From positions 1-13,306 of the forward strand of contig JBJKRS010000019.1 of NCBI GenBank assembly GCA_046704525.1: 13,306 nt of DNA. The letters run 5' to 3'. How positions within the stretch are numbered: position 1 is the stretch's first letter; every line of letters starts with the position of its first letter. Below the pieces are notes generated by a model. The model made no database searches. It was not told where the DNA came from and worked only from the letters and a program-made list of their open reading frames with translations. The stretch is from Thermoplasmataceae archaeon (GTDB taxonomy: Archaea > Thermoplasmatota > Thermoplasmata > Thermoplasmatales > Thermoplasmataceae). Below are positions 1 through 13,306 of the stretch, in pieces. A program made the translations under genes and the position numbers.

Positions 1-255
1 GGTATATTCAACCTCCATTACTACGCTTTCATGGCGGCTGGGGCAATAGTAGTCATACTCCTGATACAGGGACTCGGCATATTCCTCCCCAACGAGGTGA
101 GGATATTCCTGGAACTCAGGAAGGACAACCCTGATACTGACCGAATCTCAAGGCTCGGGATGTTAAATTTCAGGCTGTCCGGATCACAGGCATTCTTCCA
201 GATAGCACTGATATTCGTCATGGCTAACATAGCCACGATGCATCTCAACTTCTGA
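1..255 (+). CDS. 3' end of an unidentified, probably membrane, protein that begins upstream of the window. The frame is open from nt 1 and ends at TGA 253-255.
   Basis: Frame 1 has no stop from position 1. It ends with hydrophobic segments (AIVVILLIQGLGIF, FFQIALIFVMANIA). No family was recognised. Confidence 0.3.
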   Translation, partial: GIFNLHYYAFMAAGAIVVILLIQGLGIFLPNEVRIFLELRKDNPDTDRISRLGMLNFRLSGSQAFFQIALIFVMANIATMHLNF

Positions 256-260
256 AGCCA

Positions 261-1409
261 TTATTTGGAGAGGCTCAACTGGGCTGCCTCTACACCTGAG
301 CCCGGACTCACGCTCTCTCCTGATTGCCTGAGTGCCCTCTCGAGCACAGACAGCGCCCTGAGTATGTGGTGGTCCTCGACCCAGCCCATGTGGCCTATCC
401 TTATGTAGTCAGGCTTCACGCCCTTATGTACGCCTGAGCCGAATTCAACACCCAGGGAAAGTGCCTTCGAGAGCACATCCTTCTGGTTTGACCTGGAAAG
501 CCTGAGCCCTGTGACAGTGTTGCTCCTGTACTCCTTTCGCGCGACAATGTCCATTCCCATGCCCTCTATTCCAGATCTAAGTGCATCCGCCATTTTCCTG
601 TGGCGTTCAGCCCTTTCACGGACTCCTTCCTCCGAGATGAGCCGGAAGGCTTCCCTGATTGAAAAGACAGTGTTTATGGGAGGCGTGGCGAAGTAACCCC
701 CTTTTCCCTCTGCCATTCCCTTCATTATTGGAAGCCAGTTCATGAGGTTGAGGGAATACCCTGCAAGTGATTTTTCATCAAGGCCAGCCATTGCGCGTTC
801 AGATGCCACGAGGAGCCCAGCTCCCGGAGGGGCGCCAATAGCCTTCTGGCTTGCAGTCAGGAATATGTCAACTCCCCGCTTCTCCGCATCTGCCACCTCT
901 CCTCCGACTCCGGCCACTCCATCCACGGTGATCAGGTCAGACATGCCCTTCAGCACAGGAAGCAGTTCATCCAGCGGTGCTCTCACGCCTGTGCTGGTCT
1001 CCACCTGTGTCATGAACGCCATTTTGTAATGCTTGCCTGACGTTCTTTCTTTGACCATTTCCGGGGTCACGGATTCTCCTGCCTCTGCACGGATAACATC
1101 GAGTTTGACCCTGTACCTGGAGAAAATGGCCTCCCACCTGTCTCCAAACACTCCGTTCGTAAGTATCAGCAGGTCATCTCCTTCGTGAAGGAAGGATGCA
1201 ACACTCTCCATGGCAGAAGTGCCGCTTCCAGGAATAATGAAAGGCTGGTAGCTCTTCCCTGCCCCCATGACTGCCCTGAGACCCTCAAGTGAATCTCCCA
1301 TGGCCCTGATGAATTCCGGTGAAGCGAACCCAATGTTGGCTTTTGCCCCTTCCAGGAGCACATCTCTGTTTCCTATTGATGGCCCGACATGCATGAGAAG
1401 TCTGCTCAT
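261..1409 (-). CDS. Class V PLP-dependent aminotransferase (serine-pyruvate/aspartate aminotransferase type, MJ0959-like)
   Basis: 382 aa from ATG 1409. The N-terminus MSRLLMHVGPS matches M. jannaschii MJ0959 MKLLMIPGP, and GSGTSAMES and FGDRWEAI motifs typical of this class follow. The longer ORF beginning at GTG 1439 is less likely. TAA stop. Confidence 0.8.
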   Translation of the reverse strand: MSRLLMHVGPSIGNRDVLLEGAKANIGFASPEFIRAMGDSLEGLRAVMGAGKSYQPFIIPGSGTSAMESVASFLHEGDDLLILTNGVFGDRWEAIFSRYRVKLDVIRAEAGESVTPEMVKERTSGKHYKMAFMTQVETSTGVRAPLDELLPVLKGMSDLITVDGVAGVGGEVADAEKRGVDIFLTASQKAIGAPPGAGLLVASERAMAGLDEKSLAGYSLNLMNWLPIMKGMAEGKGGYFATPPINTVFSIREAFRLISEEGVRERAERHRKMADALRSGIEGMGMDIVARKEYRSNTVTGLRLSRSNQKDVLSKALSLGVEFGSGVHKGVKPDYIRIGHMGWVEDHHILRALSVLERALRQSGESVSPGSGVEAAQLSLSK

Positions 1410-1516
1410 GCTTGAGGAACGGGTATTATTAGTTAACACTTGCGTGAACCCATGGCTCGGTTTTCTTGCGGCTCTATGGCAGGTTTATTAAGCGACCTTG
1501 AACATGCGTTTCCAGA

Positions 1517-2665
1517 ATGGACCCACGCAGTGCTGCGCTATCCGTTGCAAAATTCTCAAGATCCTTCTCCCTCAGCATGCTTGCTGTGCTTACTCCGTAC
1601 TATCTCTCCTCCCTCGGCCTGGAGTCAGCCTACTACATAGGCGCAGTTATCGTCCTCGCCGCTGGAGTCTCCACAGCGTTCGTATATGCATTTGCATACC
1701 TGAAGATTGCACTCAGGAACCGCTTGCTTATCCTGGCATCTCTTTTCACAGCTTCAATGTCAGTTATAGCCATCTTCCATGGGATCCTCCCATTCATAGC
1801 GGCAATCATCTTAGGCGGCATTACACTTTCAGGCAGGGACTTGACTCCGAACGAGACAGTTGAGAAATTTTCCATCAGCACTTACGAATCCGAACAGAAG
1901 AGCAGGAACCTCGCTTTTTCAGTCTACAACTTCTCCTCCTACATAGCTGGAACTGCAGCCTCCCTCATTCTCTTCATTTTCGGCTCCCTCCACATGTATT
2001 CCTATTTTTACCTCGATATTGCCTTTGCACTCGCCCAGTTTATCCCGTACCTGGCTGTAAAGCTGCCAGAGAAGATCGAGCGGGAATCACCCAGGAAGTT
2101 TGATAAGGAAACACTTGCCCATGTAAGGAGACTCACCCCCCTCTTCGCAATGGATGCTTTTGGGGGCGGCATAGTTGTGACATCTGTCATAGCGCTCTGG
2201 TTCAAGTCGGTGTACGGAATCTCCCTCTCGCAGGCAGGGCTGATGTTCGTAATAGTAAATGTCATCACGGCAGCCTCTATTATTGCAGTCTCAATGATAT
2301 CAAACAGGCTGGGGCTAATACGCACGATGGTATATACTCACCTGGTCAGCAACGCATTTCTTGTCATGGTGCCGATTTTCCACACTCTTGCACTAAGCCA
2401 GTTAATGCTGTACCTGCGGCAGACGACGAGCCAGATGGACGTACCGGGCCGGGATAGCTTCATAAATACTGTGATACCGCAGGAACACAGGGTGCGAAGC
2501 AATTCCCACTTTCTGGCAGCCCGCAGCATCTCAATGGTACCGGGGCCGGGCATAGCTGGCCTCCTCATAGAATTTTCTTCCGCCTCTACGTTCTTCCTCG
2601 GCGGTGGTGTGAAAATCATCTACGACTTGCTTCTATTCGCCAGGTACAGGAATTACAGAAAATGA
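1517..2665 (+). CDS. Major facilitator superfamily (MFS)-type transporter
   Basis: 382 aa with about 10-12 hydrophobic helices and an MFS-like N-terminus (FSRSFSLSMLAVLTPYYLSSLGL). Divergent from the aminotransferase gene. TGA stop. Confidence 0.6.
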   Translation: MDPRSAALSVAKFSRSFSLSMLAVLTPYYLSSLGLESAYYIGAVIVLAAGVSTAFVYAFAYLKIALRNRLLILASLFTASMSVIAIFHGILPFIAAIILGGITLSGRDLTPNETVEKFSISTYESEQKSRNLAFSVYNFSSYIAGTAASLILFIFGSLHMYSYFYLDIAFALAQFIPYLAVKLPEKIERESPRKFDKETLAHVRRLTPLFAMDAFGGGIVVTSVIALWFKSVYGISLSQAGLMFVIVNVITAASIIAVSMISNRLGLIRTMVYTHLVSNAFLVMVPIFHTLALSQLMLYLRQTTSQMDVPGRDSFINTVIPQEHRVRSNSHFLAARSISMVPGPGIAGLLIEFSSASTFFLGGGVKIIYDLLLFARYRNYRK

Positions 2666-2671
2666 AGAACT

Positions 2672-3007
2672 TCAGTACTCTATGTCGTACTCATCCGTTA
2701 TGGATACCTTGACCCTGTTGCGCCCTACCCGGACTATTTCCTCAATAGGCTCCCTGAGCCTGTAGATGTGCTGCGATCTCCCGGCCCCCCTTCCCTCCTT
2801 CTTTTCCATCCTCTGCACAAATCCCTGCGAGAGGAGGTAGTTGAGTGTCTGGCTTGCCCTTGAGGAAGATATTCCAAGAAGGCGGGAAATGCTCTGGAGC
2901 CTGGCACCCTTGACCTGCTCCAGGAGAGCAAGGATCTTGGCCTTGTTTCTGCTGTAACCTGCATTGCGAAGCAGGTCATAGATCCCATTTGCCCTCTCGG
3001 TGTCCAT
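2672..3007 (-). CDS. Small winged-helix transcriptional regulator (ArsR/MarR/TrmB-like wHTH)
   Basis: 111 aa. An HTH-like segment (LQSISRLLGISSSRASQTLNYLLSQGFVQR) is followed by a basic wing. ATG at 3007, TGA stop. Convergent with the MFS gene across a 6-nt gap. Confidence 0.55.
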   Translation of the reverse strand: MDTERANGIYDLLRNAGYSRNKAKILALLEQVKGARLQSISRLLGISSSRASQTLNYLLSQGFVQRMEKKEGRGAGRSQHIYRLREPIEEIVRVGRNRVKVSITDEYDIEY

Positions 3008-3028
3008 AAGGAATATATTAACAAGAGC

Positions 3029-3042
3029 ATATTTATATTTTC
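3029..3042 (-). promoter_or_regulatory. Archaeal TATA box for the wHTH gene, positioned for a leaderless transcript
   Basis: aaatataaat on the minus strand lies at -24 to -33 relative to ATG 3007. Confidence 0.4.
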
Positions 3043-3101
3043 CCCAAGAGGTTCTGACATTGCGTGCAGAAAGTCGCTTCGGGCCCAGCAGCGGGCGGAG
3101 T

Positions 3102-3124
3102 GAAAAAACATTAAGGCTTATAAT
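3102..3124 (+). promoter_or_regulatory. A/T-rich TATA-like region upstream of hisS (divergent from the wHTH promoter)
   Basis: aaaaaacattaaggcttataat ends about 15-35 nt upstream of ATG 3140. The exact box is ambiguous. Confidence 0.3.
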
Positions 3125-3139
3125 GGCTTACAGCCCTTG

Positions 3140-4426
3140 ATGAAAGTAGAGAGGATCAAGGGCTTCAGGGATCAGTTCCCGGAGGACATGGGTCCAAGGA
3201 AGAAGCTTCTCAGGATCGCAGAGGAAAGGGCGGAGAGATTCGGATTCAAGAAGATCGATGTCCCTAGCCTTGAGTCTCTTGAACTCTATCGAATCAAGTC
3301 AGGCGAAGAACTCATATCACAGACATATTCATTTGTTGACCGGGGAGGCCGGGAAGTCACAATGATCCCGGAATTTACCCCCTCGGTGGTGAGGATGCTT
3401 ACCTCACGCAAGGATATCCCCCGTCCTGTAAGGTGGTACGGGACGCCAAAGCTCTGGAGGTATGAGGAGCCCCAGGCCGGAAGGCTCAGGGAGCACATCC
3501 AGTTCAACGCTGACATCTTCGGCCCTGACACTCCTGAGGCTGATGCAGAAATCATAGGTCTGGCCTGCTCAATACTGGACTCGCTCGGTCTTGGCGGGGA
3601 ATATGAGGTAAGGATGAGCAACAGGAAAGTCACAGAGATGCTTCTGTCCTCACTGGGAATAAAGGCTCCGGAGAAGGCATTCCCCGTTATCGACAGATTC
3701 CGGAAAGTCACCCGGGAGGAGTTCCTGGACAACATAAAGCAGCTGGGCGTCTCTGCCGGCAACGCCGAGTCGCTTGCAGACATGGTTTCTGAGAATTTTG
3801 ATGTAGAAGAGCTTAAGGAGCGCCTGTCAGGACAAATGGGAAACCACTTCGACAAGGGCCTGGTCGACAGTGTCATCGAAACAGGCAGGCTTGTCAGAAC
3901 GTTCACTTCTTCTGGAGTGAAGTACGACTTCTCCATTGTACGCGGGCTCTCATACTACACAGGAACTGTTTTCGAGGCATTCGACATAGGAGGAGAATTC
4001 CGTTCCATACTGGGTGGAGGAAGGTACAACAACCTTGCTGCGCTCCTGTCCGAACAGGACATACCTGCTGTTGGATTCGGCATGGGGGACGCTGTTATCG
4101 AGCTGCTGATGAAAAGGGCGGGCAAGTGGAAGCCTGACGACGGGAAAGATACCTATTTTGTAGCATGCCTTGGAGCCAGGGCAAGAGAATATGCATTCAG
4201 CATAGCGAATGAGATCAGGAAGTCAAGTAATGCGATCACCGAACTCTCAGGAAGGGGACTTTCCAGTCAGCTCAAAAGTGCTGCTGCAAGCGGATGCACA
4301 CATGCCGTCCTGATTGGGGAGAGGGAAGCTGGTGAAGGAACTGTGACCATCAGGGATATGAACAGCGGAGAGCAGTCTACTATGTCCAGGGCTGACTTCA
4401 TGGCGATACTGGGCACCGGTGCATGA
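3140..4426 (+). CDS. hisS: Histidyl-tRNA synthetase
   Basis: N-terminal KGFRDQFPED is the HisRS KGTRD-type motif, and the class II aaRS core and C-terminal domain are present. The ORF track starts at TTG 3137, but the true ATG is at 3140. TGA stop. Confidence 0.9.
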   Translation: MKVERIKGFRDQFPEDMGPRKKLLRIAEERAERFGFKKIDVPSLESLELYRIKSGEELISQTYSFVDRGGREVTMIPEFTPSVVRMLTSRKDIPRPVRWYGTPKLWRYEEPQAGRLREHIQFNADIFGPDTPEADAEIIGLACSILDSLGLGGEYEVRMSNRKVTEMLLSSLGIKAPEKAFPVIDRFRKVTREEFLDNIKQLGVSAGNAESLADMVSENFDVEELKERLSGQMGNHFDKGLVDSVIETGRLVRTFTSSGVKYDFSIVRGLSYYTGTVFEAFDIGGEFRSILGGGRYNNLAALLSEQDIPAVGFGMGDAVIELLMKRAGKWKPDDGKDTYFVACLGARAREYAFSIANEIRKSSNAITELSGRGLSSQLKSAAASGCTHAVLIGEREAGEGTVTIRDMNSGEQSTMSRADFMAILGTGA

Positions 4427-4493
4427 TCTCATTCTGCCCTATGCCCAACCACCTGAATCTGCGAAAAATGCAGGGAAATACGGGAAGAGGAAA

Positions 4494-4505
4494 TCTTTAT
4501 AAACA
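4494..4505 (+). promoter_or_regulatory. TATA box (tttataaa) upstream of the RAM-domain gene
   Basis: Centred about 36 nt upstream of GTG 4536, and ggtga precedes that start. Confidence 0.4.
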
Positions 4506-4535
4506 AAATAAAGCTTAAAGAAGCAGTGGTGAAAA

Positions 4536-4769
4536 GTGTCCATAGCGTTCGTTCTGGTAAGCACTGTTCCGGGCAAGGAGCATGAAGTATACAACAAGAT
4601 CTCGAAAGTCAACTACGTTGTAGAGATACACCCCCTCTTCGGCGAGTACGACCTTATTGTGAAGATAGACGCTAAGGACTACAGCGAACTCGGGAAGACT
4701 GTTGTCGAACAGATTCGCACAATCGAAGGGGTAATAGACACAAAAACACTTACCGGCATAAAATTGTGA
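4536..4769 (+). CDS. Stand-alone RAM domain protein (Lrp/AsnC C-terminal ligand-binding domain, no DNA-binding domain)
   Basis: 77 aa. MSIAFVLVSTVPGKEHEV...GEYDLIVKIDAKD matches the beta-alpha-beta-beta-alpha-beta RAM fold signature of about 75-aa archaeal stand-alone RAM proteins. GTG start, TGA stop. Confidence 0.7.
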   Translation: MSIAFVLVSTVPGKEHEVYNKISKVNYVVEIHPLFGEYDLIVKIDAKDYSELGKTVVEQIRTIEGVIDTKTLTGIKL

Positions 4770-4778
4770 GGTGAATAA

Positions 4779-5087
4779 GTGATCACGGATTTTACATGGA
4801 ACTGGCATATATTTCTACTGGTGATACTGGCTCTTCTGGCACTTTCGCTGATTATACTTGGGGTACTGACATCATACTTCGGAAGTGGCAAAAGCAGGGC
4901 TGTTGGTGTTGTCCTGCTCGTTGTCGGCGTAGTGATAGGCATTCTGACAATAGTAGTCTCAGACTATTCGTTCCACACCAGCTTCATAAGGGATGTGGTT
5001 GTTCCGACAATCTTCTATGTTGTGGCAGCCATAATTGGTGCAGTCATTGGGCTGCTGGTCTTCCTCGGCGCAATAATGAAGACCTGA
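4779..5087 (+). CDS. Small membrane protein with 3 predicted TM helices, translationally coupled to the RAM gene
   Basis: GTG start 10 nt after the RAM stop, preceded by gaggtga. Strongly hydrophobic helices. The overlapping frame at 4796-5125 gives a W/C-rich nonsense product. TGA stop. Confidence 0.5.
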
Positions 5088-5117
5088 ACCATTCATTTCC
5101 CCACCCTTTTCCGTATC

Positions 5118-5129
5118 AATTTTAAATCA
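5118..5129 (+). promoter_or_regulatory. TATA box (aattttaaat) for guaAB, leaderless spacing
   Basis: Centred about 26 nt upstream of ATG 5149. Confidence 0.45.
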
Positions 5130-5148
5130 TAATCCCATATCCCACTGT

Positions 5149-6090
5149 ATGTTCAACTCTCCCGAATTTGTATCGGAAGCGAAGGAGCAGATACGTTCCG
5201 CCCTGGGTCAATCCAGGGGAATTATGGCATGTTCAGGAGGACAGGACAGCACCCTGCTTGCCGTCATCGCAAATGAAGCTGCCGGGGACTCCGTTCTTAC
5301 CGTTTTCATTGAAACGGGCCTTCTCAGGCTTGGAGAGAAAGAGAGGGTAGAAAAGATATTCAAGGACTACAAGCTGAACTACCGAATAGTGGACGCATCG
5401 GACAGGTTCCTGGACGGGCTAAAGGGCGTCACTGACCCGGAACAGAAGAGAAAGATCATTGGAAAGACTTTCATCGACGTGTTTTCAGAAATTGCGGAGG
5501 AGTCCGGGGCAGATTACCTTCTTCAGGGGACAATAGCTCCGGACTGGATAGAAAGCGGCGGTGGAGTCAGGGACACAATAAAGAGCCACCACAACGTGGG
5601 TGGCCTGCCTGAGGACATGAAATTAAAGCTTATTGAGCCCCTGAGAGATCTTTACAAGGACGAAGTAAGGATGGTGTCAGAACACCTGAAACTGCCATCC
5701 AATATACAGCCGTTTCCTGGCCCGGGGCTTGCAGTCAGGGTTATTGGGGAGGTTACCAGGGAGAAACTGAAGCTCCTCAGAGGCGTGACTGCAATCGTGG
5801 AATCAGAAATAGACGGCCAGTACAGGAGCTCCAAGATACGGCCATGGCAGTTTTTCGCCGTGCTCCTACCGGTGAAGACAACAGGAGTCCATGGGGACAA
5901 GAGGTCCTACGGGCCCACAGTGGCAATAAGATCGGTGGACACCGAAGACGCAATGAGCGGCTCTTTCACAAAACTGCCTTGGGAACTTCTGGAACACATA
6001 TCAGTCAGGATAACAAACGAATTCGGCGAGATCAACAGGGTAGTTTACGACGTAACAAACAAACCTCCCGGTACCATTGAATGGGAATGA
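5149..6090 (+). CDS. guaAB: GMP synthase [glutamine-hydrolysing] subunit B (ATP pyrophosphatase subunit of the archaeal split GuaA)
   Basis: SGGQDS PP-loop. Near-colinear similarity to M. jannaschii GuaAB ([61 protein letters not shown]). Confidence 0.9.
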
Positions 6091-6115
6091 ACAGAGGCTG
6101 CTGAAACCGGCTGGG

Positions 6116-6400
6116 TCAATGCTGGATCTTCCTCTTTAGCCTCTGGTATTCTTTTTCCACTTTCTCGTCCAGGTACGCCTCACCCCTGTACACTGCCAGG
6201 AAGTGCCCTATTATTCCTATACCCCACCCGAACAGCACAAATACGAACCATGGGAATACCGATCCGTGCGGCGTAGTGGTGAAATACCAGATAGCTGCGA
6301 GAAACAGGTTTACTGCAATGTATATGCCGAAGTGGACCTGGAACCCAACTTTGTCAGCCGCGATTTTCTCGGCTCTCTTCTTCAGATCTTCATCATTCAT
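6116..6400 (-). CDS. 2TM-domain membrane protein (PF13239-like)
   Basis: 95 aa from ATG 6400 (MNDEDLKKRAEK...). Two hydrophobic helices (VHFGIYIAVNLFLAAIW and FPWFVFVLFGWGIGIIGHF) match the 2TM family pattern. The upstream in-frame extension in the ORF track is probably not translated. Confidence 0.65.
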   Translation of the reverse strand: MNDEDLKKRAEKIAADKVGFQVHFGIYIAVNLFLAAIWYFTTTPHGSVFPWFVFVLFGWGIGIIGHFLAVYRGEAYLDEKVEKEYQRLKRKIQH

Positions 6401-6419
6401 GATTAAATCAATCAGAACC

Positions 6420-6431
6420 GGATTATAACTG
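6420..6431 (-). promoter_or_regulatory. TATA box (agttataatcc on the minus strand) for the 2TM gene, leaderless
   Basis: Centred about 26 nt upstream of ATG 6400. Confidence 0.4.
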
Positions 6432-6563
6432 GGCATCCTCATCTTTATCGGACTGGAATTAAAGCCCAGGTACAGGCAGTTGTACTGAAGAGAGGGGCAA
6501 GCAGGGGGTGACATGTGGATTAAAACCGTGCAATGTATACACGTTGAGGGAAAAAGAAAAGAA

Positions 6564-6578
6564 ATAATAATTATATGA
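6564..6578 (+). promoter_or_regulatory. TATA box (aataattatat) upstream of rps2
   Basis: About 45 nt upstream of ATG 6617, leaving a short leader that contains agagtga. Confidence 0.4.
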
Positions 6579-6616
6579 GGGCAGTATCAGGAAACATTAT
6601 CCCAAAGAGTGATTCA

Positions 6617-7219
6617 ATGAACACAGAGGAACTGTTAATCTCAGAGGAGGAATACCAGAAATCCGGTGTCCACATAGGGACACAGACCAAGTCAAAGGAT
6701 ATGCTGAATTATATCTTCAAAATAAGAAACGACGGCCTTTATATTCTGGATGTCAGAAAAACCAATGACGCCCTTGTGACTGCCGGAAGGATGCTTGCGC
6801 GAATAGATCCCGCAGACATACTCGTGGTTGCACAGAGGCAGTACGCTTTCAGGCCCGTGAACAAGTTCTCGGAAGTTGTCGGAGCCAACTCCATTGTGGG
6901 AAGGTTCATTCCTGGCACACTGACAAACCCGCAACTTGAAAGCTACAGGGAGGCCAAAGTCATAGTGGTGACCGACCCTCTCGCGGATGTCCAGGTCATG
7001 AAGGAGGCTAAGAGGACTGGAGTCCCAATCATCGCTCTGTGCGATGCCAACAACAAGACAGATTTTGTCGATCTCGTAATACCAACTAACAACAAGGGAA
7101 GAAGGTCGCTTGCAGTCATTTACTGGCTCCTTGCAAGAGAGACCCTCAAGAACAGGGGAAAGATCTCTTCCAACGAGGACTTCAGCTATACAGTCGACGA
7201 CTTCGAAGTGCAGCTATAA
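6617..7219 (+). CDS. rps2: 30S ribosomal protein S2 (uS2), archaeal type
   Basis: LLISEEEYQKSGVHIGTQ...YIFKIRNDGLYILDVRKT and DPLADVQVMKEAKRTGVPIIALCDANN are canonical uS2 blocks. Start chosen at MNTEEL. ATG 6575 in the ORF track lies inside the TATA box. TAA stop. Confidence 0.88.
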   Translation: MNTEELLISEEEYQKSGVHIGTQTKSKDMLNYIFKIRNDGLYILDVRKTNDALVTAGRMLARIDPADILVVAQRQYAFRPVNKFSEVVGANSIVGRFIPGTLTNPQLESYREAKVIVVTDPLADVQVMKEAKRTGVPIIALCDANNKTDFVDLVIPTNNKGRRSLAVIYWLLARETLKNRGKISSNEDFSYTVDDFEVQL

Positions 7220-7237
7220 TTACCGCTGCACTCACCA

Positions 7238-7250
7238 ACTCTCCCTTTTT
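7238..7250 (+). terminator. Oligo-T tract (ctctcccttttt) in the convergent gap between rps2 and endA
   Basis: A pyrimidine/T run lies immediately after the rps2 stop. Archaeal terminators are oligo-T. It overlaps the endA stop on the opposite strand. Confidence 0.3.
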
Positions 7251-8172
7251 ACAGGAATGGTTCCCGCAGTCGTTGGACAGCCACGTATTTCGTGCTGTTG
7301 TTATCCGGACCAGCGAAGACCATAGTCTTGTGCACTCCGTGAGCAACCCGGACTGCCCTGCTGATCTTGTACCACTCCTCGCTCCCGGAGAGGAAATGTA
7401 TCAGGTAATCTGCATGGGACTCCATGTCTCCGGTATAAGCCCTGAAATTTGTCCCGTACTTGAATCCTGTTTTGACTATGAGCCCTCTGGCAACTAGATC
7501 GGAGTATATCCTGTAAAGAGGGTTTCCTGAGCATGCGTCTGATTCTCCTGAAGCTTCCCTGAGAAGGCATTCTTCCATTTCTGTAAGGAACCTGACATTC
7601 CTGAACCTGTTGCCGATCCAGCCGGGTACGTCATCCCCGACCAGGGCGCTCCTGTCAGAAATTCGGGGGAAGTCTGCTTGTATGTTTCCTGCAAACATGT
7701 TGTCCCCTTTCGGATCACTGCCCTCCACTCGGAAGAAAGTGATATCATTCTCGTCATCAACTGCCGCAACAAGCGACCCTTCCATGCCAATAAGCTCTCT
7801 GAAGGAAAGGCTGCTGCTTTCCCTTATAACCCTGAGGGGTCCGCTGTATTCATCCCTCGGCGATTTCCTGAAAAACAGTGAGTCCTTCTCCCTCTTCACT
7901 TGCAGCCCCTTGAGCTTGACCTTCTCGTAGACTGAATATAGAATCAGGTCTGATGGTTCAGGGAGGAGCTCGCGCATTAGATTCAGGGAATCTGTGTAAA
8001 AGGGGTTTTCCGGCTCAATTTTGCCCTTGAAGAAGAGGAACAGGCCCTCGAAAGGCGTAAGCATGAGGGTTTCCTCTGCCATTTTGCCCACTCTGTATTT
8101 GCTTACTATCGACGACGGGCCGCGTGATCCTGTTAGCCTGAAAACAATGCCTGCGGAGATGGCCCTTTGCAT
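7249..8172 (-). CDS. endA: tRNA-splicing (intron) endonuclease, alpha2 type with a degenerate N-terminal repeat
   Basis: Catalytic block GLIVKTGFKYGTNFRAYTG...HADYLIH...RVAHGVHKTMVFA resembles A. fulgidus EndA (GFVVKTGFKFGSEFRVY...RLAQNVRKRMVFA). The N-terminal LTPFEGLFL matches AF LHPLEVVYL, which favours the ATG 8172 start (307 aa) over ATG 8082 or the 336-aa ORF that overlaps the GTPase. Confidence 0.8.
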   Translation of the reverse strand: MQRAISAGIVFRLTGSRGPSSIVSKYRVGKMAEETLMLTPFEGLFLFFKGKIEPENPFYTDSLNLMRELLPEPSDLILYSVYEKVKLKGLQVKREKDSLFFRKSPRDEYSGPLRVIRESSSLSFRELIGMEGSLVAAVDDENDITFFRVEGSDPKGDNMFAGNIQADFPRISDRSALVGDDVPGWIGNRFRNVRFLTEMEECLLREASGESDACSGNPLYRIYSDLVARGLIVKTGFKYGTNFRAYTGDMESHADYLIHFLSGSEEWYKISRAVRVAHGVHKTMVFAGPDNNSTKYVAVQRLREPFL

Positions 8173-8173
8173 G

Positions 8174-8695
8174 TCATTTCCTCTTGGAGTAGAAAACGTC
8201 CAGAAGACTTTCTGTAACATGCTGGAGGAGTTCCTCAGTTCCCGCAGCTGTTTTGGCACTTACCAGGAAGTAGTCAACGCCAGTGCTCTTCTTGACTCTT
8301 TCAAAGTCATCCTCCCACACTGCTGCTTCGTACTTCAGGTCGGACTTTGTGCCGACAAGTGCAAGAACGGGACTGTCCACAACGCTGTTGAGGTACTTCA
8401 GGATATCTTCGGCAACTTCCAGCTCCTCGCCCCTCGTTATGTCGACAGTGACGAGAATGCAGTTGGATCCCGTAAGGAGTTTCTCAATTCCCTCCTCGTC
8501 CTGAAGTTCCAGAAAGAGCAGATCGGCTATCAACTTGCTGCCGGATCTCTCGAGGGACATTTTCTTCTTCATCAGTCCCCTCTGCTTAACGGGTCCCGAA
8601 TCCGAGTCGTACACTATCCTGGATACCAGTGAAGACTTCCCTGATCCAGGCTGACCAAGGACGGTGAGTTTCCAGGTGACCCTCTGAAGTTCCAT
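8174..8695 (-). CDS. Ras/Rab-like small GTPase (stand-alone, 173 aa)
   Basis: G1 GQPGSGKSS, G3 LQDEEG (DxxG), G4 GTKSDL (NKxD variant) and G5 SAK are in canonical order, and an ILVTVDIT segment follows G3 as in Ras. The TGA stop lies 1 nt before the endA ATG. Confidence 0.75.
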   Translation of the reverse strand: MELQRVTWKLTVLGQPGSGKSSLVSRIVYDSDSGPVKQRGLMKKKMSLERSGSKLIADLLFLELQDEEGIEKLLTGSNCILVTVDITRGEELEVAEDILKYLNSVVDSPVLALVGTKSDLKYEAAVWEDDFERVKKSTGVDYFLVSAKTAAGTEELLQHVTESLLDVFYSKRK

Positions 8696-8714
8696 TTAGC
8701 GAGTTATTTGTCGT

Positions 8715-8728
8715 TGTATATTATAGTT
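8715..8728 (-). promoter_or_regulatory. TATA box (ctataatata on the minus strand) for the GTPase gene, leaderless
   Basis: Centred about 26 nt upstream of ATG 8695 within the 174-nt AT-rich intergenic region. Confidence 0.5.
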
Positions 8729-8869
8729 TACGTCGCCATACTGCGCAAAAATCGTGCTAAACTATGACTGGGCAGACTACTCCATCTGGAAGGGAAATTT
8801 AGGAGGATGTGGAACGGCAGTTTCCAAAGGGATGAAATACATCTCGCTGGCATAACTCCTCTGGAAGGA

Positions 8870-9892
8870 TCAGCCCACTTCCACCCTGTTTATGACCTTC
8901 CCGGTAGTTGCGTCAACTATTACCACAGTGCTTTCTTTCTTATACCTGAACTTGGCGAACCAGTTGGGGACATGCATGAGCTCTGGATCAGAGACATCGC
9001 ACTCTGTCTCTATGCTTCGGACCATGTGATGCTCTGAATGGGCTAGGGTTGCCTGCAGCTGGTCAACGTTTGTCTTCGCCTCGTACTTCGCAGCATCCAT
9101 CCCTATATCTCCGTTTAGAACGTTGACCCCTTTTGGCAGCTTTGATTCTTCGAATTCTGCTCTCTTAGAGAGGTCAAAGCTGTACTCCCTTGGCTGGTAC
9201 TGTGTAAGGGCCTTGACGGCCACCACCGGATAGTTGTAGTTCTTGTTGATTGTGTACGACCTAATGTTCTGTCCACCCCCCATCATGCTGCCAATCATGG
9301 CGCCTCCAAGCAAACCCTGCCCTATGCCTAGGCCTCTCCCAGACCTGTTTCTCCCTCCACTCATTCCTCCGCTGGCAAGGCCTATTATGGCTGCTGTTGC
9401 TGCCACCTTTCCAACCTCTACTGCAACATCTTCTGCTGTGTAGTTCGTCCTTGCTGAAACCGGCACTATCCAGTACGGGACATACCTGAGATTCATCTCC
9501 TCTATTGTGGACCTTTCTGCTATCCTGATCCTGAATATCCCTCTGTTCAGCTCTTCCCTCATCTCTGAGAGTGCCTGATCCCTTGACTGAAGCATCAGGG
9601 GCATCATGGTATGTTTGGTAACATTCCTCCAGCCCATGTTCTGCAGTGCAACTGAGGTACCGCAGTATTCGCATGATATCACCATTTCTCCAAATTCAGG
9701 CTTGATGGGGGCACCGCATCCAGGGCATTTCAGCTCAATGACACTTGGCTCTGCAATTACCGCAGCCTGCTGCACTGTCGCCTTGCTTCCTGCTCCTCCG
9801 CCCTTCCCTTCCGGATCCCCCTGTTTTGCTCCGCATTTGGGGCAGTACAGGGCATCGTTTGGAATTTCACTCCCGCATTTCAGGCAGAACAT
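8870..9892 (-). CDS. Zinc-ribbon / glycine-rich protein of unknown function, third gene of the SPFH operon
   Basis: 340 aa. N-terminal CxxCG-x9-YCPKCG ribbon, second ribbon CPGCG...CEYCG, a Gly-rich low-complexity core (GLASGGMSGGRNRSGRGLGIGQGLLGGAMIGSMMGGGQ) and a C-terminal domain of unknown family. The ATG directly abuts the TAG stop of the SPFH gene in the same frame, with aaggtg 6 nt upstream. Confidence 0.7.
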   Translation of the reverse strand: MFCLKCGSEIPNDALYCPKCGAKQGDPEGKGGGAGSKATVQQAAVIAEPSVIELKCPGCGAPIKPEFGEMVISCEYCGTSVALQNMGWRNVTKHTMMPLMLQSRDQALSEMREELNRGIFRIRIAERSTIEEMNLRYVPYWIVPVSARTNYTAEDVAVEVGKVAATAAIIGLASGGMSGGRNRSGRGLGIGQGLLGGAMIGSMMGGGQNIRSYTINKNYNYPVVAVKALTQYQPREYSFDLSKRAEFEESKLPKGVNVLNGDIGMDAAKYEAKTNVDQLQATLAHSEHHMVRSIETECDVSDPELMHVPNWFAKFRYKKESTVVIVDATTGKVINRVEVG

Positions 9893-10147
9893 CTATTGCA
9901 CCTTTGTTCCGCAGTTAGGGCAGAACTTTACACCATCAGGAATCTCTGTGCCGCAGTTTGAGCATTTCTTCTTTTCCTGCGGTGCCGGAGATACCGATGC
10001 GCCACAGTTCGGGCAGAATTTGGCGCCATGGTGAACCTGTGTTCCGCACTTCGGGCAGGGAGTTGTAGCCACCTGCTGTTGCACACTGGCTCCACAGTTG
10101 GGACAGAAATTGCTGGTTGCAGGCACTATGGAGCCGCATTTGCTGCA
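9827..10147 (-). repeat. Tandem array of four CxxCG-x9/10-[FY]CPxCG zinc-ribbon coding repeats, three at the SPFH C-terminus and one at the N-terminus of the next gene
   Basis: The plus-strand DNA shows the repeated ccgcagtt(n)gggcagaa pattern, which is the antisense of FCPNCG. The protein repeats are CSKCGSIVPATSNFCPNCGASV, CPKCGTQVHHGAKFCPNCGASV, CSNCGTEIPDGVKFCPNCGTKV and, after the TAG, CLKCGSEIPNDALYCPKCGAK. Confidence 0.7.
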
Positions 10148-11053
10148 TGTCCTTCCGGGTGGCTGCTGCAAGCCACCGTAAAGCTGGTTTGTGAATGCAT
10201 ACCCCATTCCGGCGCCTGCACCTATCCCCACTCCCAGCCCCGCACCTATCCCAGCAGTCCCGGACGGATTGCTCGCGGCATCCACCATTGCCTGTCCAGC
10301 CTGGTACTGGAGATAATTCACCCCAAGCACGGACATCTGTGATCTTGTGTCGATAGCTTTCTGCACCTCGTCCGGAAGTGATATGTTCAGCTGCTGGAGC
10401 TTGTTTATCTCAACTCCGTACTGCCTGAAGTGGGTGGGGGCAATGGCGAGAACACCCTGCTCTATTGCCGTGAGGTTTGACGGAATATCTGTAACCTTCA
10501 TTCCTGCTTCCTTCAGTTTTCCAAGGGTGTTGTAAAGAAGTATGACAATCTGCTCCCTGAGCCTGTCTTCAACCTCGTCCGAAGTCTCTGCGTTGAATGT
10601 TCCAACAAACTGGCTGATGAAAACCTCTACATTGGATATCTTCCACCTGTACTCGCCGAAAACCTTGAGATTCACCACACCGAAAGTCGGGTCGGTGAAC
10701 TGGTACGGTGTCGGGCTGCCGAACTTTCCGTCCATGAATCTTCTCTGGACATAGTAAACCTCTGCCAGCTGCTGAACTCCGGAGAGTGCCTTGACAAGGC
10801 CGCCAACAATTGGCGCATTAATGTCGGTCAGTGCGTACCTGTTTGGCTGGTCCAGCATGGAGAGTATCTTTCCATCCCGCAGGAACACTGCTGTCTCATC
10901 CTCTCTCACGACCACGTTGTCGTTGAGGCGTATGAGCCGTGGAACTTTCCAGATGGAATTTCCCTGCTTGTACTGGCTGTCCCACTCGATTGTTGTGGAA
11001 CCAAAAAGGCTCCCTCCCTTCGATGGTATTTCAGTTGATCTTCTTCCGAACAT
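9893..11053 (-). CDS. SPFH/Band-7 family protein of the Band_7_1 (B. subtilis YdjI-like) type with a C-terminal triple zinc-ribbon tail
   Basis: 386 aa. N-terminal TIEWDSQ...VVVREDETAVFLRDGKI matches the Band_7_1 signature (IEW...RESQAAVFV). A Gly-rich zipper (SGTAGIGAGLGVGIGAGAGMGYAF) precedes three CxxCG...FCPNCG ribbons. The ATG overlaps the TAA of the upstream gene by 1 nt. The stop is TAG. Confidence 0.75.
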   Translation of the reverse strand: MFGRRSTEIPSKGGSLFGSTTIEWDSQYKQGNSIWKVPRLIRLNDNVVVREDETAVFLRDGKILSMLDQPNRYALTDINAPIVGGLVKALSGVQQLAEVYYVQRRFMDGKFGSPTPYQFTDPTFGVVNLKVFGEYRWKISNVEVFISQFVGTFNAETSDEVEDRLREQIVILLYNTLGKLKEAGMKVTDIPSNLTAIEQGVLAIAPTHFRQYGVEINKLQQLNISLPDEVQKAIDTRSQMSVLGVNYLQYQAGQAMVDAASNPSGTAGIGAGLGVGIGAGAGMGYAFTNQLYGGLQQPPGRTCSKCGSIVPATSNFCPNCGASVQQQVATTPCPKCGTQVHHGAKFCPNCGASVSPAPQEKKKCSNCGTEIPDGVKFCPNCGTKVQ

Positions 11054-11592
11054 TACTCTTCACCTCCAGGCGTAAGCAGGATATTTTCAACTGTCTGTAT
11101 CCTGGATTCCCAGGCCGTCTTGGCTTCAATGACTGCCTGAGTGATCTCCCCAAGCGACTCTTCAAGATTCTGGGAGTCGGAAAAACTGCAGAGCGACCTG
11201 ATGCGATCTGCCACGTCCAGGAATTTGAGGTCATATTCATACAGCTTCCTCAGCTTCTCTTCGTTAAGCCTTATGGCCGGTGAAATTCCAGTTGAACCCT
11301 GCGAAGCGTGTACGAGTTCCCCCTGAAATTCCTGTAGCCTGGACAAAGGCCCCGAGAGAAGGGTGAGCTTGTCGAACTTCTCCTGGCTGACCAGAGCCTC
11401 CCTTTCATTGTGTATTGAGTCAATTGCAAGCTGCAGAATCCTTCCGACCTGGTTTCTCAGGAGTTCATCCGCAACCCGTATGTCTTCAAGTTTCCTGTAT
11501 CCCCTGAATATCGGTATATAAAGCTGTATTTTCTTCAGGAGTCCCCTGTTCTTTTCAACTTCTTCCCTGATATCGGGATTGCCGGACTGCAT
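11053..11592 (-). CDS. Hypothetical all-alpha/coiled-coil protein (179 aa), first gene of the SPFH operon
   Basis: Clean ORF with ATG 11592 and TAA overlapping the SPFH ATG (TAATG). Charged helical composition, no TM segment, no family recognised by eye. Confidence 0.55.
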   Translation of the reverse strand: MQSGNPDIREEVEKNRGLLKKIQLYIPIFRGYRKLEDIRVADELLRNQVGRILQLAIDSIHNEREALVSQEKFDKLTLLSGPLSRLQEFQGELVHASQGSTGISPAIRLNEEKLRKLYEYDLKFLDVADRIRSLCSFSDSQNLEESLGEITQAVIEAKTAWESRIQTVENILLTPGGEE

Positions 11593-11610
11593 GAAAAATC
11601 ATGTCCTACC

Positions 11611-11641
11611 TTTTTTAAGCCCTTATCCTTTAAATGATAAG
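11611..11641 (-). promoter_or_regulatory. A-rich TATA-like element (gcttaaaaaagg) for the 179-aa gene, with the adjacent inverted repeat CTTATC-N8-GATAAG (11622-11641)
   Basis: The TATA-like run lies at about -19 to -30 from ATG 11592. The perfect 6-bp inverted repeat flanks a second TATA-like core (ctttaaat) immediately upstream. Confidence 0.35.
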
Positions 11642-11766
11642 CATCCTGTTTTATAAACAGTTCAAGGCAAATTCCTGGGGGCCGGTATTTTCAAGACATC
11701 GTGCAAGTGTGTGGCAGACAAAAAGGCGGAAAGAATATTTGCTTTACAGAGATGACCGGGTATATG

Positions 11767-12996
11767 GACTTCTCGCTGTCTGAAATTGTGGGTCACATGA
11801 AGCCGTCTGAGATCAGGGAGCTATCGAAGTATGCCACCAGCAATGATGTTGTATCATTCGGAGGAGGCATGCCTGACCCGGTAACGTTTCCAAGGTCGGA
11901 GATAAGGGAAATACTCGATGGCATAATTGAAAAGAGCGCAGACAAAGCCCTCCAGTACGGAAACACCAACGGGCTGGACATCTTGAGGTCCGAACTCAAG
12001 TCTTTTGTGAAGAGAAAGGAGTCGATCAGCACCAGCGAGGAGAACATGATTGTGACTGCAGGCTCCCAGCAGGGACTCTATGCAATAGGGCGAATTTTCA
12101 TAGATCCAGGAGACACAATTATCACTGAATCGCCAACATATGTTGGCGCTGTGTCAGCTTTCAACGCCAATTCCGCGAAGCTGGCCCAGATAGGAATGGA
12201 CAGTGACGGGATAATCCCAGAAGATGTGGAGAAGTCCATAGCGGACCTTTCATCAAGAGGCCACAAGCCCAAGTTCATATATGTTATCCCGAATTTCCAG
12301 AATCCCACCGGCGTGACCCTTTCCCTTGAGAGGAGAAAGCATCTCCTTGAGATCTCAGAAAAACACCAGATACCTATAGTTGAGGATAACCCGTATGGCG
12401 AGATCCGTTTCTCTGGAACAAGGATACCGACCTTGAAGAGCCTGGACAGGAATGACAGTGTCATCTACATGGGGAGTTTTTCAAAGATCATGTCTCCAGG
12501 GCTGAGGCTGGGTTACATAATAGCCCCGAAGAAGATTGTAGATACGATTGCCCTTCTCAAGCAGGCCCTTGACCTTTCCACCAACTCGCTCTCGCAATTT
12601 GTCGCGGCAGAGTATCTGAAGAGAAACATCATAGACCAGCAGGTGCCCAAATCAATTGAACTCTACAGGAAGAAGAGGGATGCAATGCTTGGCGCCCTTG
12701 AGGACAACTTCTCGAGTGTTGGAACCTGGACAAAGCCTCAGGGGGGAATGTTTGTCTGGGCAACGATGAATGGTGATGTGAACACTTCCAAGATGCTGAT
12801 AAATGCCGTGAAGAATGGAGTAATTTATGTGAGCGGCCCTGCATTTACCCAGGACAACAGCCATACCCGCTCCATGAGGCTCAATTTCACCTTCCCTTCA
12901 GAGGATAGGATTGTCGAGGGAATCAAGAGGCTCTCAAAAGTTGCCAAGGAGGAGTTCCGGCTCGTCCCGGGAGAGCAGTCATCCAAACAGGTATAA
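11767..12996 (+). CDS. Class I/II PLP-dependent aminotransferase (2-aminoadipate/aromatic aminotransferase, LysN/AroAT-like)
   Basis: Colinear with Thermus LysN: FGGGMPDP, QYGNTNG, TAGSQQGLY, YVIPNFQNPTG, and GSFSKIMSPGLRLGY with the PLP lysine. Start chosen at MDFSLSEI (ATG 11767, with an aagaatattt TATA about 30 nt upstream). Alternatives are ATG 11752 and GTG 11701. TAA stop. Confidence 0.8.
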   Translation, partial: DFSLSEIVGHMKPSEIRELSKYATSNDVVSFGGGMPDPVTFPRSEIREILDGIIEKSADKALQYGNTNGLDILRSELKSFVKRKESISTSEENMIVTAGSQQGLYAIGRIFIDPGDTIITESPTYVGAVSAFNANSAKLAQIGMDSDGIIPEDVEKSIADLSSRGHKPKFIYVIPNFQNPTGVTLSLERRKHLLEISEKHQIPIVEDNPYGEIRFSGTRIPTLKSLDRNDSVIYMGSFSKIMSPGLRLGYIIAPKKIVDTIALLKQALDLSTNSLSQFVAAEYLKRNIIDQQVPKSIELYRKKRDAMLGALEDNFSSVGTWTKPQGGMFVWATMNGDVNTSKMLINAVKNGVIYVSGPAFTQDNSHTRSMRLNFTFPSEDRIVEGIKRLSKVAKEEFRLVPGEQSSKQV

Positions 12997-13018
12997 CTTC
13001 CTCCGGCATGCACACACA

Positions 13019-13306
13019 ATGATCACCATACTCGGGGGTTCCTTCGCATTTCTTCACCCGGGCCACAAGGCCCTGCTAAGGGCGGCGGTGGAGACTGGTA
13101 ACCGGGTAGTCGTGGGCCTTACCACCGATGAATACCTTGTAAAGAACAAGCGCTACGCCACGGTCCCGTACGATGTCAGGGAAGGAAGGGTGAGGTCATA
13201 CCTTGCAGGCATCACTGACAATTTTGACATAGTGCCTCTGACTTCGCGCGAAGGACTTTCCGAGTCCGGAAAGGAGTATGGCTGCATTGTGGTATCAGAT
13301 GAAACC
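13019..13306 (+). CDS. coaD: Phosphopantetheine adenylyltransferase, archaeal type (N-terminal 96 codons, continues beyond the window)
   Basis: MITILGGSFAFLHPGHKALLRAA (HxGH nucleotidyltransferase motif)...GLTTDEYLVKNKRYATVPYDVR...CIVVSDET matches archaeal PPAT (Pyrococcus GGTFDRLHLGHKALL...GLTSDEM...ILPYELR...AIVVSEET). Confidence 0.75.
   Translation, partial: MITILGGSFAFLHPGHKALLRAAVETGNRVVVGLTTDEYLVKNKRYATVPYDVREGRVRSYLAGITDNFDIVPLTSREGLSESGKEYGCIVVSDET

Follow-up and report, generated by a model that had tools for sequence, protein, structure and literature searches.

A conserved archaeal operon coding for SamI-like and SamG-like proteins and a helical-bundle family that accompanies Band_7_1 genes

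In Bacillus subtilis the sigma-W envelope-stress operon pspA-ydjGHI codes for the PspA-SamGHI system, whose SPFH protein SamI (YdjI) has no membrane anchor, requires SamG (YdjG) and SamH (YdjH) for membrane localization, forms higher-order assemblies, recruits PspA and restrains signaling by SamGH (PMC8581546; bioRxiv 10.64898/2026.02.06.704340). Pairing of SPFH genes with partner genes is conserved across bacteria and archaea, and the soluble SPFH8 and SPFH9 subfamilies have been listed without documented members (Hinderhofer 2009, PMC2636767); the Psp networks of archaea have been described as 'largely unknown' (Popp 2022, PMC9239133). Here we analyze a stretch of 13,306 nucleotides (nt), hereafter the window, which spans positions 1 to 13,306 of the forward strand of contig JBJKRS010000019.1 from a Thermoplasmataceae archaeon (assembly GCA_046704525.1) and carries on its minus strand three closely packed genes that we term A, B and C. 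To our knowledge, B. subtilis is the only organism in which soluble SPFH proteins of the SamI/YdjI type have been studied to date, in every case alongside PspA.

On balance, we favor the view that A-B-C is an archaeal form of the sub-membrane SPFH module of SamG and SamI (YdjG and YdjI), combined with a third, previously undescribed component. Within this picture, the sequence-based identification of B with SamI and of C with SamG is one in which we have high confidence and is far more secure than the functional picture as a whole, the function assigned to A and the attachment of C to the membrane being less secure. The list of open reading frames (ORFs) in six frames places gene A at 11053..11592 (179 residues), gene B at 9893..11053 (386 residues) and gene C at 8870..9892 (340 residues), and a direct reading of the reverse complement confirms the junctions that had originally been described for these three minus-strand genes: stop and start codon overlap by 1 nt between A and B (gag TAATG ttc), and B and C abut with zero gap at caaTAGATGttc (caa TAG ATG ttc). 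A candidate archaeal TATA box, TTTATAAAA, read directly at 11649..11657 on the minus strand about 60 nt upstream of the start codon of gene A, is the putative promoter of a tight and probably translationally coupled operon. This packing is beyond chance, as the same order on one strand, with genes that overlap or lie close together, is found again in 54 of 83 independent loci of archaea.

Protein B matches the Pfam family Band_7_1 (PF13421) with an E-value of 3.1e-35 and 122.1 bits against a gathering cutoff of 24, across profile positions 11-210 of 211, with the SPFH domain at residues 41-241 (10331..10933, minus strand). Behind this domain lie a Gly/Ala-rich low-complexity linker at approximately residues 258-290 (10184..10282, minus strand; …GIGAGLGVGIGAGAGMG…), which aligns with the low-complexity region of YdjI, and three C-terminal Cys4 zinc ribbons at residues 300-385 (9899..10156, minus strand), matched in three stretches each by the DZR, Zn_Ribbon_1 and Zn_ribbon_3 models. 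Our reference for the bacterial system was a metagenomic locus of the B. subtilis type, pspA-ydjG-ydjH-ydjI (L092), retrieved with the sequence of a ydjG primer (PMC8581546) as an exact DNA pattern; in Pfam searches its YdjI consists of Band_7_1 (8e-43, 146.9 bits) and a zinc ribbon, and its YdjH is a TPM protein. In BLASTP, B aligns with this YdjI from end to end over 353 columns (E 2e-11, 20% identity), and the two proteins share the order of SPFH domain, Gly/Met-rich low complexity and ribbon. A scan of Kyte-Doolittle hydropathy averaged over 19 residues (KD) found no transmembrane (TM) segment in B, its maximum of 1.28 falling only in the Gly-rich linker and below the TM threshold. Based on the Band_7_1 match, the absence of a TM segment and the end-to-end alignment with YdjI in equal element order, B is by its sequence a YdjI/SamI-type soluble SPFH protein, and the profile search and the YdjI alignment thereby bear out what had been predicted for the central gene of the operon.

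Protein C begins with two Cys4 zinc ribbons separated by a variable linker (residues 1-23 and 54-80; 9653..9892, minus strand; Pfam Zn_Ribbon_1 and DZR), the eight cysteines of which are invariant in 54 homologs; Pfam recovers only zinc-ribbon models and no family for the remainder. An AlphaFold2 model built from the 54-sequence alignment, with a predicted local distance difference test score (pLDDT) of 81, displays after the ribbons a first alpha+beta unit at residues 86-155 (9428..9637, minus strand), with a helix at 104-116 and a long beta-hairpin at 129-154 with the YVPYW motif, a unit that also aligns to YdjG. There follows a hydrophobic helix (156-173; maximal KD 1.62 at 156-174) and a Gly/Met-rich segment (174-207), together 9272..9427 on the minus strand and of low pLDDT; the segment is modeled as disordered, and its glycine pattern is conserved in the alignment. 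The second alpha+beta part, residues 208-340 (8873..9271, minus strand; HVPNWF…DATTGKVIN), has a PepSY/YpeB/cystatin-like fold made of a strand at 210-224, a helix at 265-287 and four strands at 291-339. The KD scan found no C-terminal TM helix, and the borderline internal stretch at 156-174 is the sole TM candidate in C; the hydrophobic helix and Gly/Met segment are the only candidate membrane-interacting element of the operon.

Aligned with YdjG by hhalign, the C-family profile gives a probability of 97.2% (E 3.3e-11) over 155 columns spanning both ribbons and the first alpha+beta unit, and the C-terminal hairpin VPxW…(D/N)xxxGKV likewise matches YdjG (hidden Markov model E 1.6e-5; hhalign 47%). 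Based on these two matches we identify C as a homolog of YdjG/SamG, which supports the link that the original prediction had drawn to pspA-ydjGHI and its zinc-ribbon neighbor. Furthermore, C carries after its ribbons the YpeB-related, NTF2-like alpha+beta domain that is described as a feature of the YdjG/SamG family (Ravi 2024). The two N-terminal ribbons and the Gly-rich core (about residues 156-207) of the earlier description stand, but the internal repeat thought to flank this core does not (hhalign 2%, not significant), only a short L..VP.W motif recurring within C; similarly, its C-terminal domain remains without a Pfam family but is no longer unrecognized, given the PepSY/YpeB-like fold of the model and the YdjG-homologous hairpin. 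As a separate observation, in the most divergent locus with A and B (L003:9710-11792) three tandem C-like paralogs of 244, 332 and at least 113 residues replace the single C, each with one zinc ribbon and a YxPxW unit; C-terminal TM helices are evident in the first two (KD up to 2.5), whose architecture is nearer to that of Bacillus YdjG, and the third ends at the end of the locus with no TM helix in the part present.

We then examined the gene neighborhoods of C, with this protein as the anchor of a scan of GTDB species genomes that yielded at least 304 confirmed relatives. From these, 80 loci were analyzed, from Thermoplasmataceae, Thermoplasmata, Methanomassiliicoccales, Sysuiplasma, Nitrososphaeria/Thaumarchaeota (including Nitrosotalea and Nitrosopumilaceae) and Bathyarchaeia, and with three found earlier they make up the set of 83, which was searched with profiles and scored by stop-codon positions. 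Across phyla, homologs of C (n=376) share 46-64% identity, the mean per alignment column being 60%, and the closest among the matches listed is that of a Thermoplasmataceae metagenome-assembled genome (MAG) at 64% (L005). The order A-B-C on one strand, found in 54 loci, is conserved in Thermoplasmatota, Nitrososphaeria and Bathyarchaeia, in agreement with the predicted co-conservation of the three genes; another four loci have B-C with A beyond the contig end, and in six C lies at a contig edge. A is present in every one of the 54 loci that have B and sufficient contig. At the A/B junction, 14 loci have a spacing of -4 or -1 nt, and almost all of the rest have no more than 50 nt; the gaps between B and C range from 0 to 49 nt. 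In the remaining 19 loci the sequence extends 4 kb or more upstream of C, yet neither A nor B is found there in register; one of them is L003, with A-B and then the three divergent paralogs, and the other 18 have neither A nor B within 6 kb on either side. These C-only loci (among them L020, L024, L027, L028, L038, L046, L054, L064 and L067) belong mainly to Bathyarchaeia, with some from Nitrososphaeria and Methanomassiliicoccales, and no conserved alternative partner was found in them, the only recurrent neighbor being a Kelch-repeat gene in four loci. This gene, seen in Nitrososphaerota directly downstream of a stand-alone C (L072:7227-8309, L074, L081 and L084), codes for a protein of about 360 residues with an N-terminal hydrophobic stretch and is split into two shorter ORFs in L081. 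Two MAGs labeled as bacteria, 'Candidatus Acidiferrales bacterium' (L022) and 'bacterium isolate clean1925' (L052), also have an archaeal-type C at 45-50% identity, which probably reflects a binning or labeling problem and not gene transfer.

The components that accompany SamG and SamI in Bacillus were then sought at the archaeal loci. No protein of the window matches PspA in Pfam, as had been predicted, and phmmer with two PspA queries found no match in the window and the 83 loci (0.89 Mb, covering 6 kb on either side). Likewise, no window protein matches TPM_phosphatase, and no homolog of YdjH was found in the same 0.89 Mb; profile searches for TPM and for DUF4178, both considered earlier as possible affiliations, place neither in the window proteins. 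Since homologs of SamI and SamG are thus encoded together in an operon that three archaeal lineages conserve and that has neither PspA nor SamH in its vicinity, we propose that the SPFH/SamG core can work independently of ESCRT-III-type proteins.

The third component, protein A, has no Pfam family at E<=1. It does match the NCBIfam model NF047596 (LIMLP_15305 family) over nearly its full length with 35.3 bits (E 1e-8), short of the curated equivalog cutoff of 210 bits, and the same model is matched by 46 of 47 aligned relatives of A with a best E-value of 1.3e-13. Because of this consistency across relatives we take the homology to be real, A being on these matches a distant relative of the LIMLP_15305 family and not an equivalog member. 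The literature mentions the LIMLP_15305 family only once, as a flanking gene within a Leptospira peroxide transcriptome (PMC7567364). An AlphaFold2 model of A (pLDDT 81, predicted TM-score 0.75) is a compact five-helix bundle with helices at 8-25, 35-69, 73-99, 111-134 and 143-173, and the KD scan found no hydrophobic segment; together with B it is predicted to be soluble. The original characterization of A as all-helical is therefore sustained by the model, and that of a protein of no recognized family holds for Pfam but gives way to the distant NCBIfam relationship. Searches of PDB sequences with A, B and C returned only zinc-ribbon noise and no relative of A.

An exhaustive profile search at E<=1e-3 collected 1,356 cluster representatives of the A family, nearly all of 170-180 residues, with members in bacteria such as Armatimonadota and Anaerolineales. 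Between bacteria and archaea G31, Y32, D42, R46, G99, L114, Y118, D121 and R164 are invariant, and the invariant residues fall in the motifs IPGxxGY, ADxLLR, GYSG and LYxYD. Several members have an N-terminal zinc ribbon of their own, and one database protein (P0341) is a fusion of A and Band_7_1 that is possibly a deletion artefact. In all six distant contexts that could be retrieved, a Band_7_1 gene follows the A gene, either directly or with one gene in between. The Band_7_1 proteins encoded downstream at L085:6537-7568 and L086:6527-7561, in two bacterial, Chloroflexota-like loci, have a C-terminal HTH_17 domain of DNA-binding type in place of zinc ribbons; a further bacterial cluster (L087:702-4039) runs from an A-DUF4178 fusion through a true PspA_IM30 protein to a Band_7_1 protein with zinc ribbon; in another bacterial locus (L088) A and Band_7_1 are directly followed by a SpoIIE phosphatase; in an armatimonadotal locus (L089) a 154-residue gene intervenes between A and Band_7_1; and in L090 the A-family protein is fused to a zinc ribbon. 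The intervening gene of L089 was considered as a free-standing DUF4178 and rejected, having no Pfam match. The same locus also encodes a 577-residue neighbor without Pfam match (2566-4299), which is hydrophobic over a stretch at its N-terminus, contains a TM segment further in and ends in a Cys/His-rich repeat, (ACHS)n.

Judged from these neighborhoods, the conserved core is the pair of A and Band_7_1, with C as the usual third member in the archaea studied here, and A is not an occupant particular to archaea or to this operon position but an upstream partner of Band_7_1 genes in bacteria as well. We further entertain, tentatively and with appreciable doubt, the broader idea that every soluble Band_7_1 SPFH protein has its missing obligate partner in the A family: the two would form an ancient, self-contained sub-membrane machine with a sensing or effector function, to which PspA, TPM, DUF4178, SamG, zinc-ribbon and HTH modules were added lineage by lineage, and in archaea without PspA the pair with SamG might constitute the whole envelope-stress system, with A as its output subunit.

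In light of the behavior of the Bacillus proteins, we posit the following mechanism for the archaeal module. C would reside at the cytoplasmic face of the membrane by means of its hydrophobic and Gly-rich insert, for which insertion as a hairpin or in the plane of the membrane is more plausible than a single pass, because in the model the flanks on both sides of the insert belong to a single alpha+beta module. It would then recruit B, by analogy with the recruitment of SamI by SamG and SamH, and B would oligomerize into an SPFH ring or cage that organizes or monitors a membrane patch. Translational coupling would keep A at a constant ratio to B, to which it may bind via a conserved polar surface (IPGxxGY, ADxLLR, GYSG, LYxYD and R164), acting as a dedicated adaptor or regulator of B that perhaps controls assembly or passes on a signal. 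As the module appears to work without PspA and the TPM protein YdjH, we suggest that it is a scaffold or sensor unit and no remodeling machine of the ESCRT-III type.

Several observations weigh against this picture. The role proposed for A derives solely from synteny. The archaeal loci searched do not contain YdjH, which in Bacillus is reported to anchor YdjI and PspA directly. The C-terminal TM helix of YdjG is missing from C, whose only hydrophobic stretch is borderline, is followed by Arg-containing Gly-rich sequence and is modeled with low confidence. Finally, C stands alone, with no conserved neighbor, in 18 of the 83 loci and bacterial A-Band_7_1 pairs occur without C, from which it follows that C is not obligatory for the A-B pair.

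A first alternative, which overlaps with the SPFH-module picture and is partly compatible with it, is that the operon encodes a membrane-tethered device for signaling or gene regulation, in which the ribbons of C and the modules at the C-terminus of B would serve to bind a regulator or nucleic acid, the SPFH assembly would sequester or release this activity according to membrane state and A would be the switch subunit. The HTH_17 domains that take the place of the archaeal zinc ribbons in L085 and L086, the N-terminal zinc ribbons of some A-family members and the SpoIIE-type phosphatase directly downstream in L088 all point in this direction, as do the global transcriptional changes that follow loss of SamI in B. 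subtilis through unrestrained SamGH signaling (bioRxiv 10.64898/2026.02.06.704340) and the fact that the ribbon type of YdjG is a known DNA binder (Popp 2022, PMC9239133). However, short Cys4 ribbons act at least as often in protein-protein contacts or close to the membrane, neither a transcription factor nor a kinase consistently accompanies the archaeal operon and no target is identifiable, such that we consider this explanation unlikely.

A second alternative, raised as a possibility in the earlier reading, is that A is a structural or functional analog of PspA/ESCRT-III that would fill the pspA position, polymerize on membranes and be recruited by the SPFH protein. The precedent for it is the recruitment of PspA by YdjI in Bacillus (PMC8581546), which makes a soluble helical client of a Band_7_1 protein conceivable; A also comes first in its operon as pspA does in B. 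subtilis, and it is all-helical with a helical hairpin (35-69/73-99). Beyond these shared traits the comparisons are uniformly contrary. A has no PspA_IM30 or Snf7 match at E<=1 in Pfam (hmmsearch -1.2 bits), and of the 53 Pfam families matched by 47 relatives of A, the 25 that were listed include neither of the two; hhalign gives 0.2% against the PspA of L087 and 0.4% against a Bacillus-type PspA. Foldseek returned nothing at E<=1e-3, with ESCRT-III absent among the 50 matches listed and the best matches being talin-rod and PsbQ-type bundles at TM-scores below 0.45. Structurally, the model is a compact bundle with no extended hairpin, and it does not have the ESCRT-III fold, in which a long alpha1-alpha2 hairpin is combined with alpha3-alpha5 in a characteristic packing topology. 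Moreover, A-DUF4178 and a true PspA coexist in the single cluster of L087, and A must therefore be a different component and not a stand-in for PspA. The combined evidence leaves the analogy quite improbable. Equally, A bears no relationship to YdjH (hhalign 0.08%).

That the operon is an anti-virus defense system or other mobile accessory module employing an SPFH protein is highly improbable: although zinc-ribbon-rich multi-gene cassettes are common in defense islands and PspA-type systems were first noticed via phage stress, no PADLOC model matches A, B or C (best E 0.017), the context in the window is housekeeping, the neighbors vary by lineage with none integrase-like or defense-like, and the 46-64% identity of C across archaeal phyla fits vertical inheritance of a core cellular function.

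The gene downstream of the operon codes for a Ras-family GTPase of 173 residues (PF00071, 1.5e-13; 8174..8695, minus strand), and lies 174 nt beyond gene C across a spacer at 8696-8869. It was weighed as a fourth component and rejected: a homolog occurs near the operon only in the closest relative, L005, among the 83 loci, and the spacer contains a T5 run (8747-8751) and a TATA-like box, CTATAATATAC (8716-8726), centered about 26 nt before the ATG of the GTPase gene. Because of these two elements the gene probably has its own, possibly leaderless, transcript; the GTPase is thus downstream as described before, but membership of the module is not upheld.

The other genes of the window are of a housekeeping character, coding for class-V and class-I/II aminotransferases, a major facilitator superfamily transporter, histidyl-tRNA synthetase, the C-terminal subunit of GMP synthase, ribosomal protein S2 and a tRNA-splicing endonuclease; no tRNA genes were found in the window. 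For the divergent aminotransferase ORF (11701-12996, plus strand) the listed GTG start lies 108 nt from the start of gene A and would overlap the shared promoter region; translation probably begins at an ATG further downstream, several of which are available (…MTGYMDF…). Between the genes for GMP synthase and ribosomal protein S2 lies one for a 132-residue protein with a 2TM domain (6116-6514, minus strand; PF13239, 3e-17). Elsewhere, a 77-residue stand-alone Lrp/AsnC ligand-binding domain without a DNA-binding domain (4536-4769, plus strand) is encoded just before a 102-residue hydrophobic protein without Pfam family (4779-5087, plus strand).

Two of the three proteins of the A-B-C operon belong to a system already described in Firmicutes, and the locus is not categorically new. 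What appears undescribed in the searchable literature is a conserved archaeal SamI-SamG operon without PspA and SamH, the A family, named only by the NCBIfam model for Leptospira hypothetical proteins, and the general linkage of A with Band_7_1; we found no literature on the A family or on this pairing, but coverage of the searchable literature is incomplete and novelty is unproven. As a constant genomic companion of Band_7_1 genes in bacteria and archaea, the A family offers a concrete candidate interaction partner, and the operon provides an entry point to the biology of envelope stress and membrane organization in archaea, including the ammonia-oxidizing Nitrososphaeria. These findings extend existing ideas on SPFH and Psp systems and do not overturn them.

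Set against the known systems, the closest likeness is to PspA-SamGHI of B. subtilis: YdjI/SamI corresponds to B in its soluble Band_7_1 domain, low-complexity linker and C-terminal zinc ribbon or ribbons, YdjG/SamG corresponds to C in its two N-terminal zinc ribbons and YpeB/PepSY-like units, and both members are encoded in one tight operon, as here. The archaeal loci differ in lacking PspA and the TPM protein YdjH/SamH, and in their gene order, which is A-I-G here versus pspA-G-H-I in B. subtilis; furthermore, archaeal C has a borderline hydrophobic and Gly-rich insert in mid-protein where YdjG has a C-terminal TM helix, B has three ribbons against the one of YdjI, and A has no counterpart in the Bacillus operon. 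The PspA/Vipp1/ESCRT-III superfamily resembles A in being soluble, all-helical, of about 180-220 residues and genetically linked to a Band_7_1 SPFH protein, but shares with it no sequence, profile or specific fold similarity. The LIMLP_15305 family (NF047596) of Leptospira is like A in length (about 175 residues) and aligns over nearly its full extent, though A reaches only 35 bits against the cutoff of 210 and the family consists of hypothetical proteins. Finally, the operons of SPFH proteins with their partners, namely stomatin/QmcA-NfeD, FloT-NfeD2/YuaF, FloA-NfeD1b/YqeZ and HflK/C-FtsH, likewise couple an SPFH gene translationally to that of a dedicated small partner; in the archaeal operon, by contrast, this partner is a soluble helical bundle encoded upstream and not an NfeD-type membrane protein with an oligonucleotide/oligosaccharide-binding (OB) fold, and the SPFH protein B is itself without a membrane anchor.

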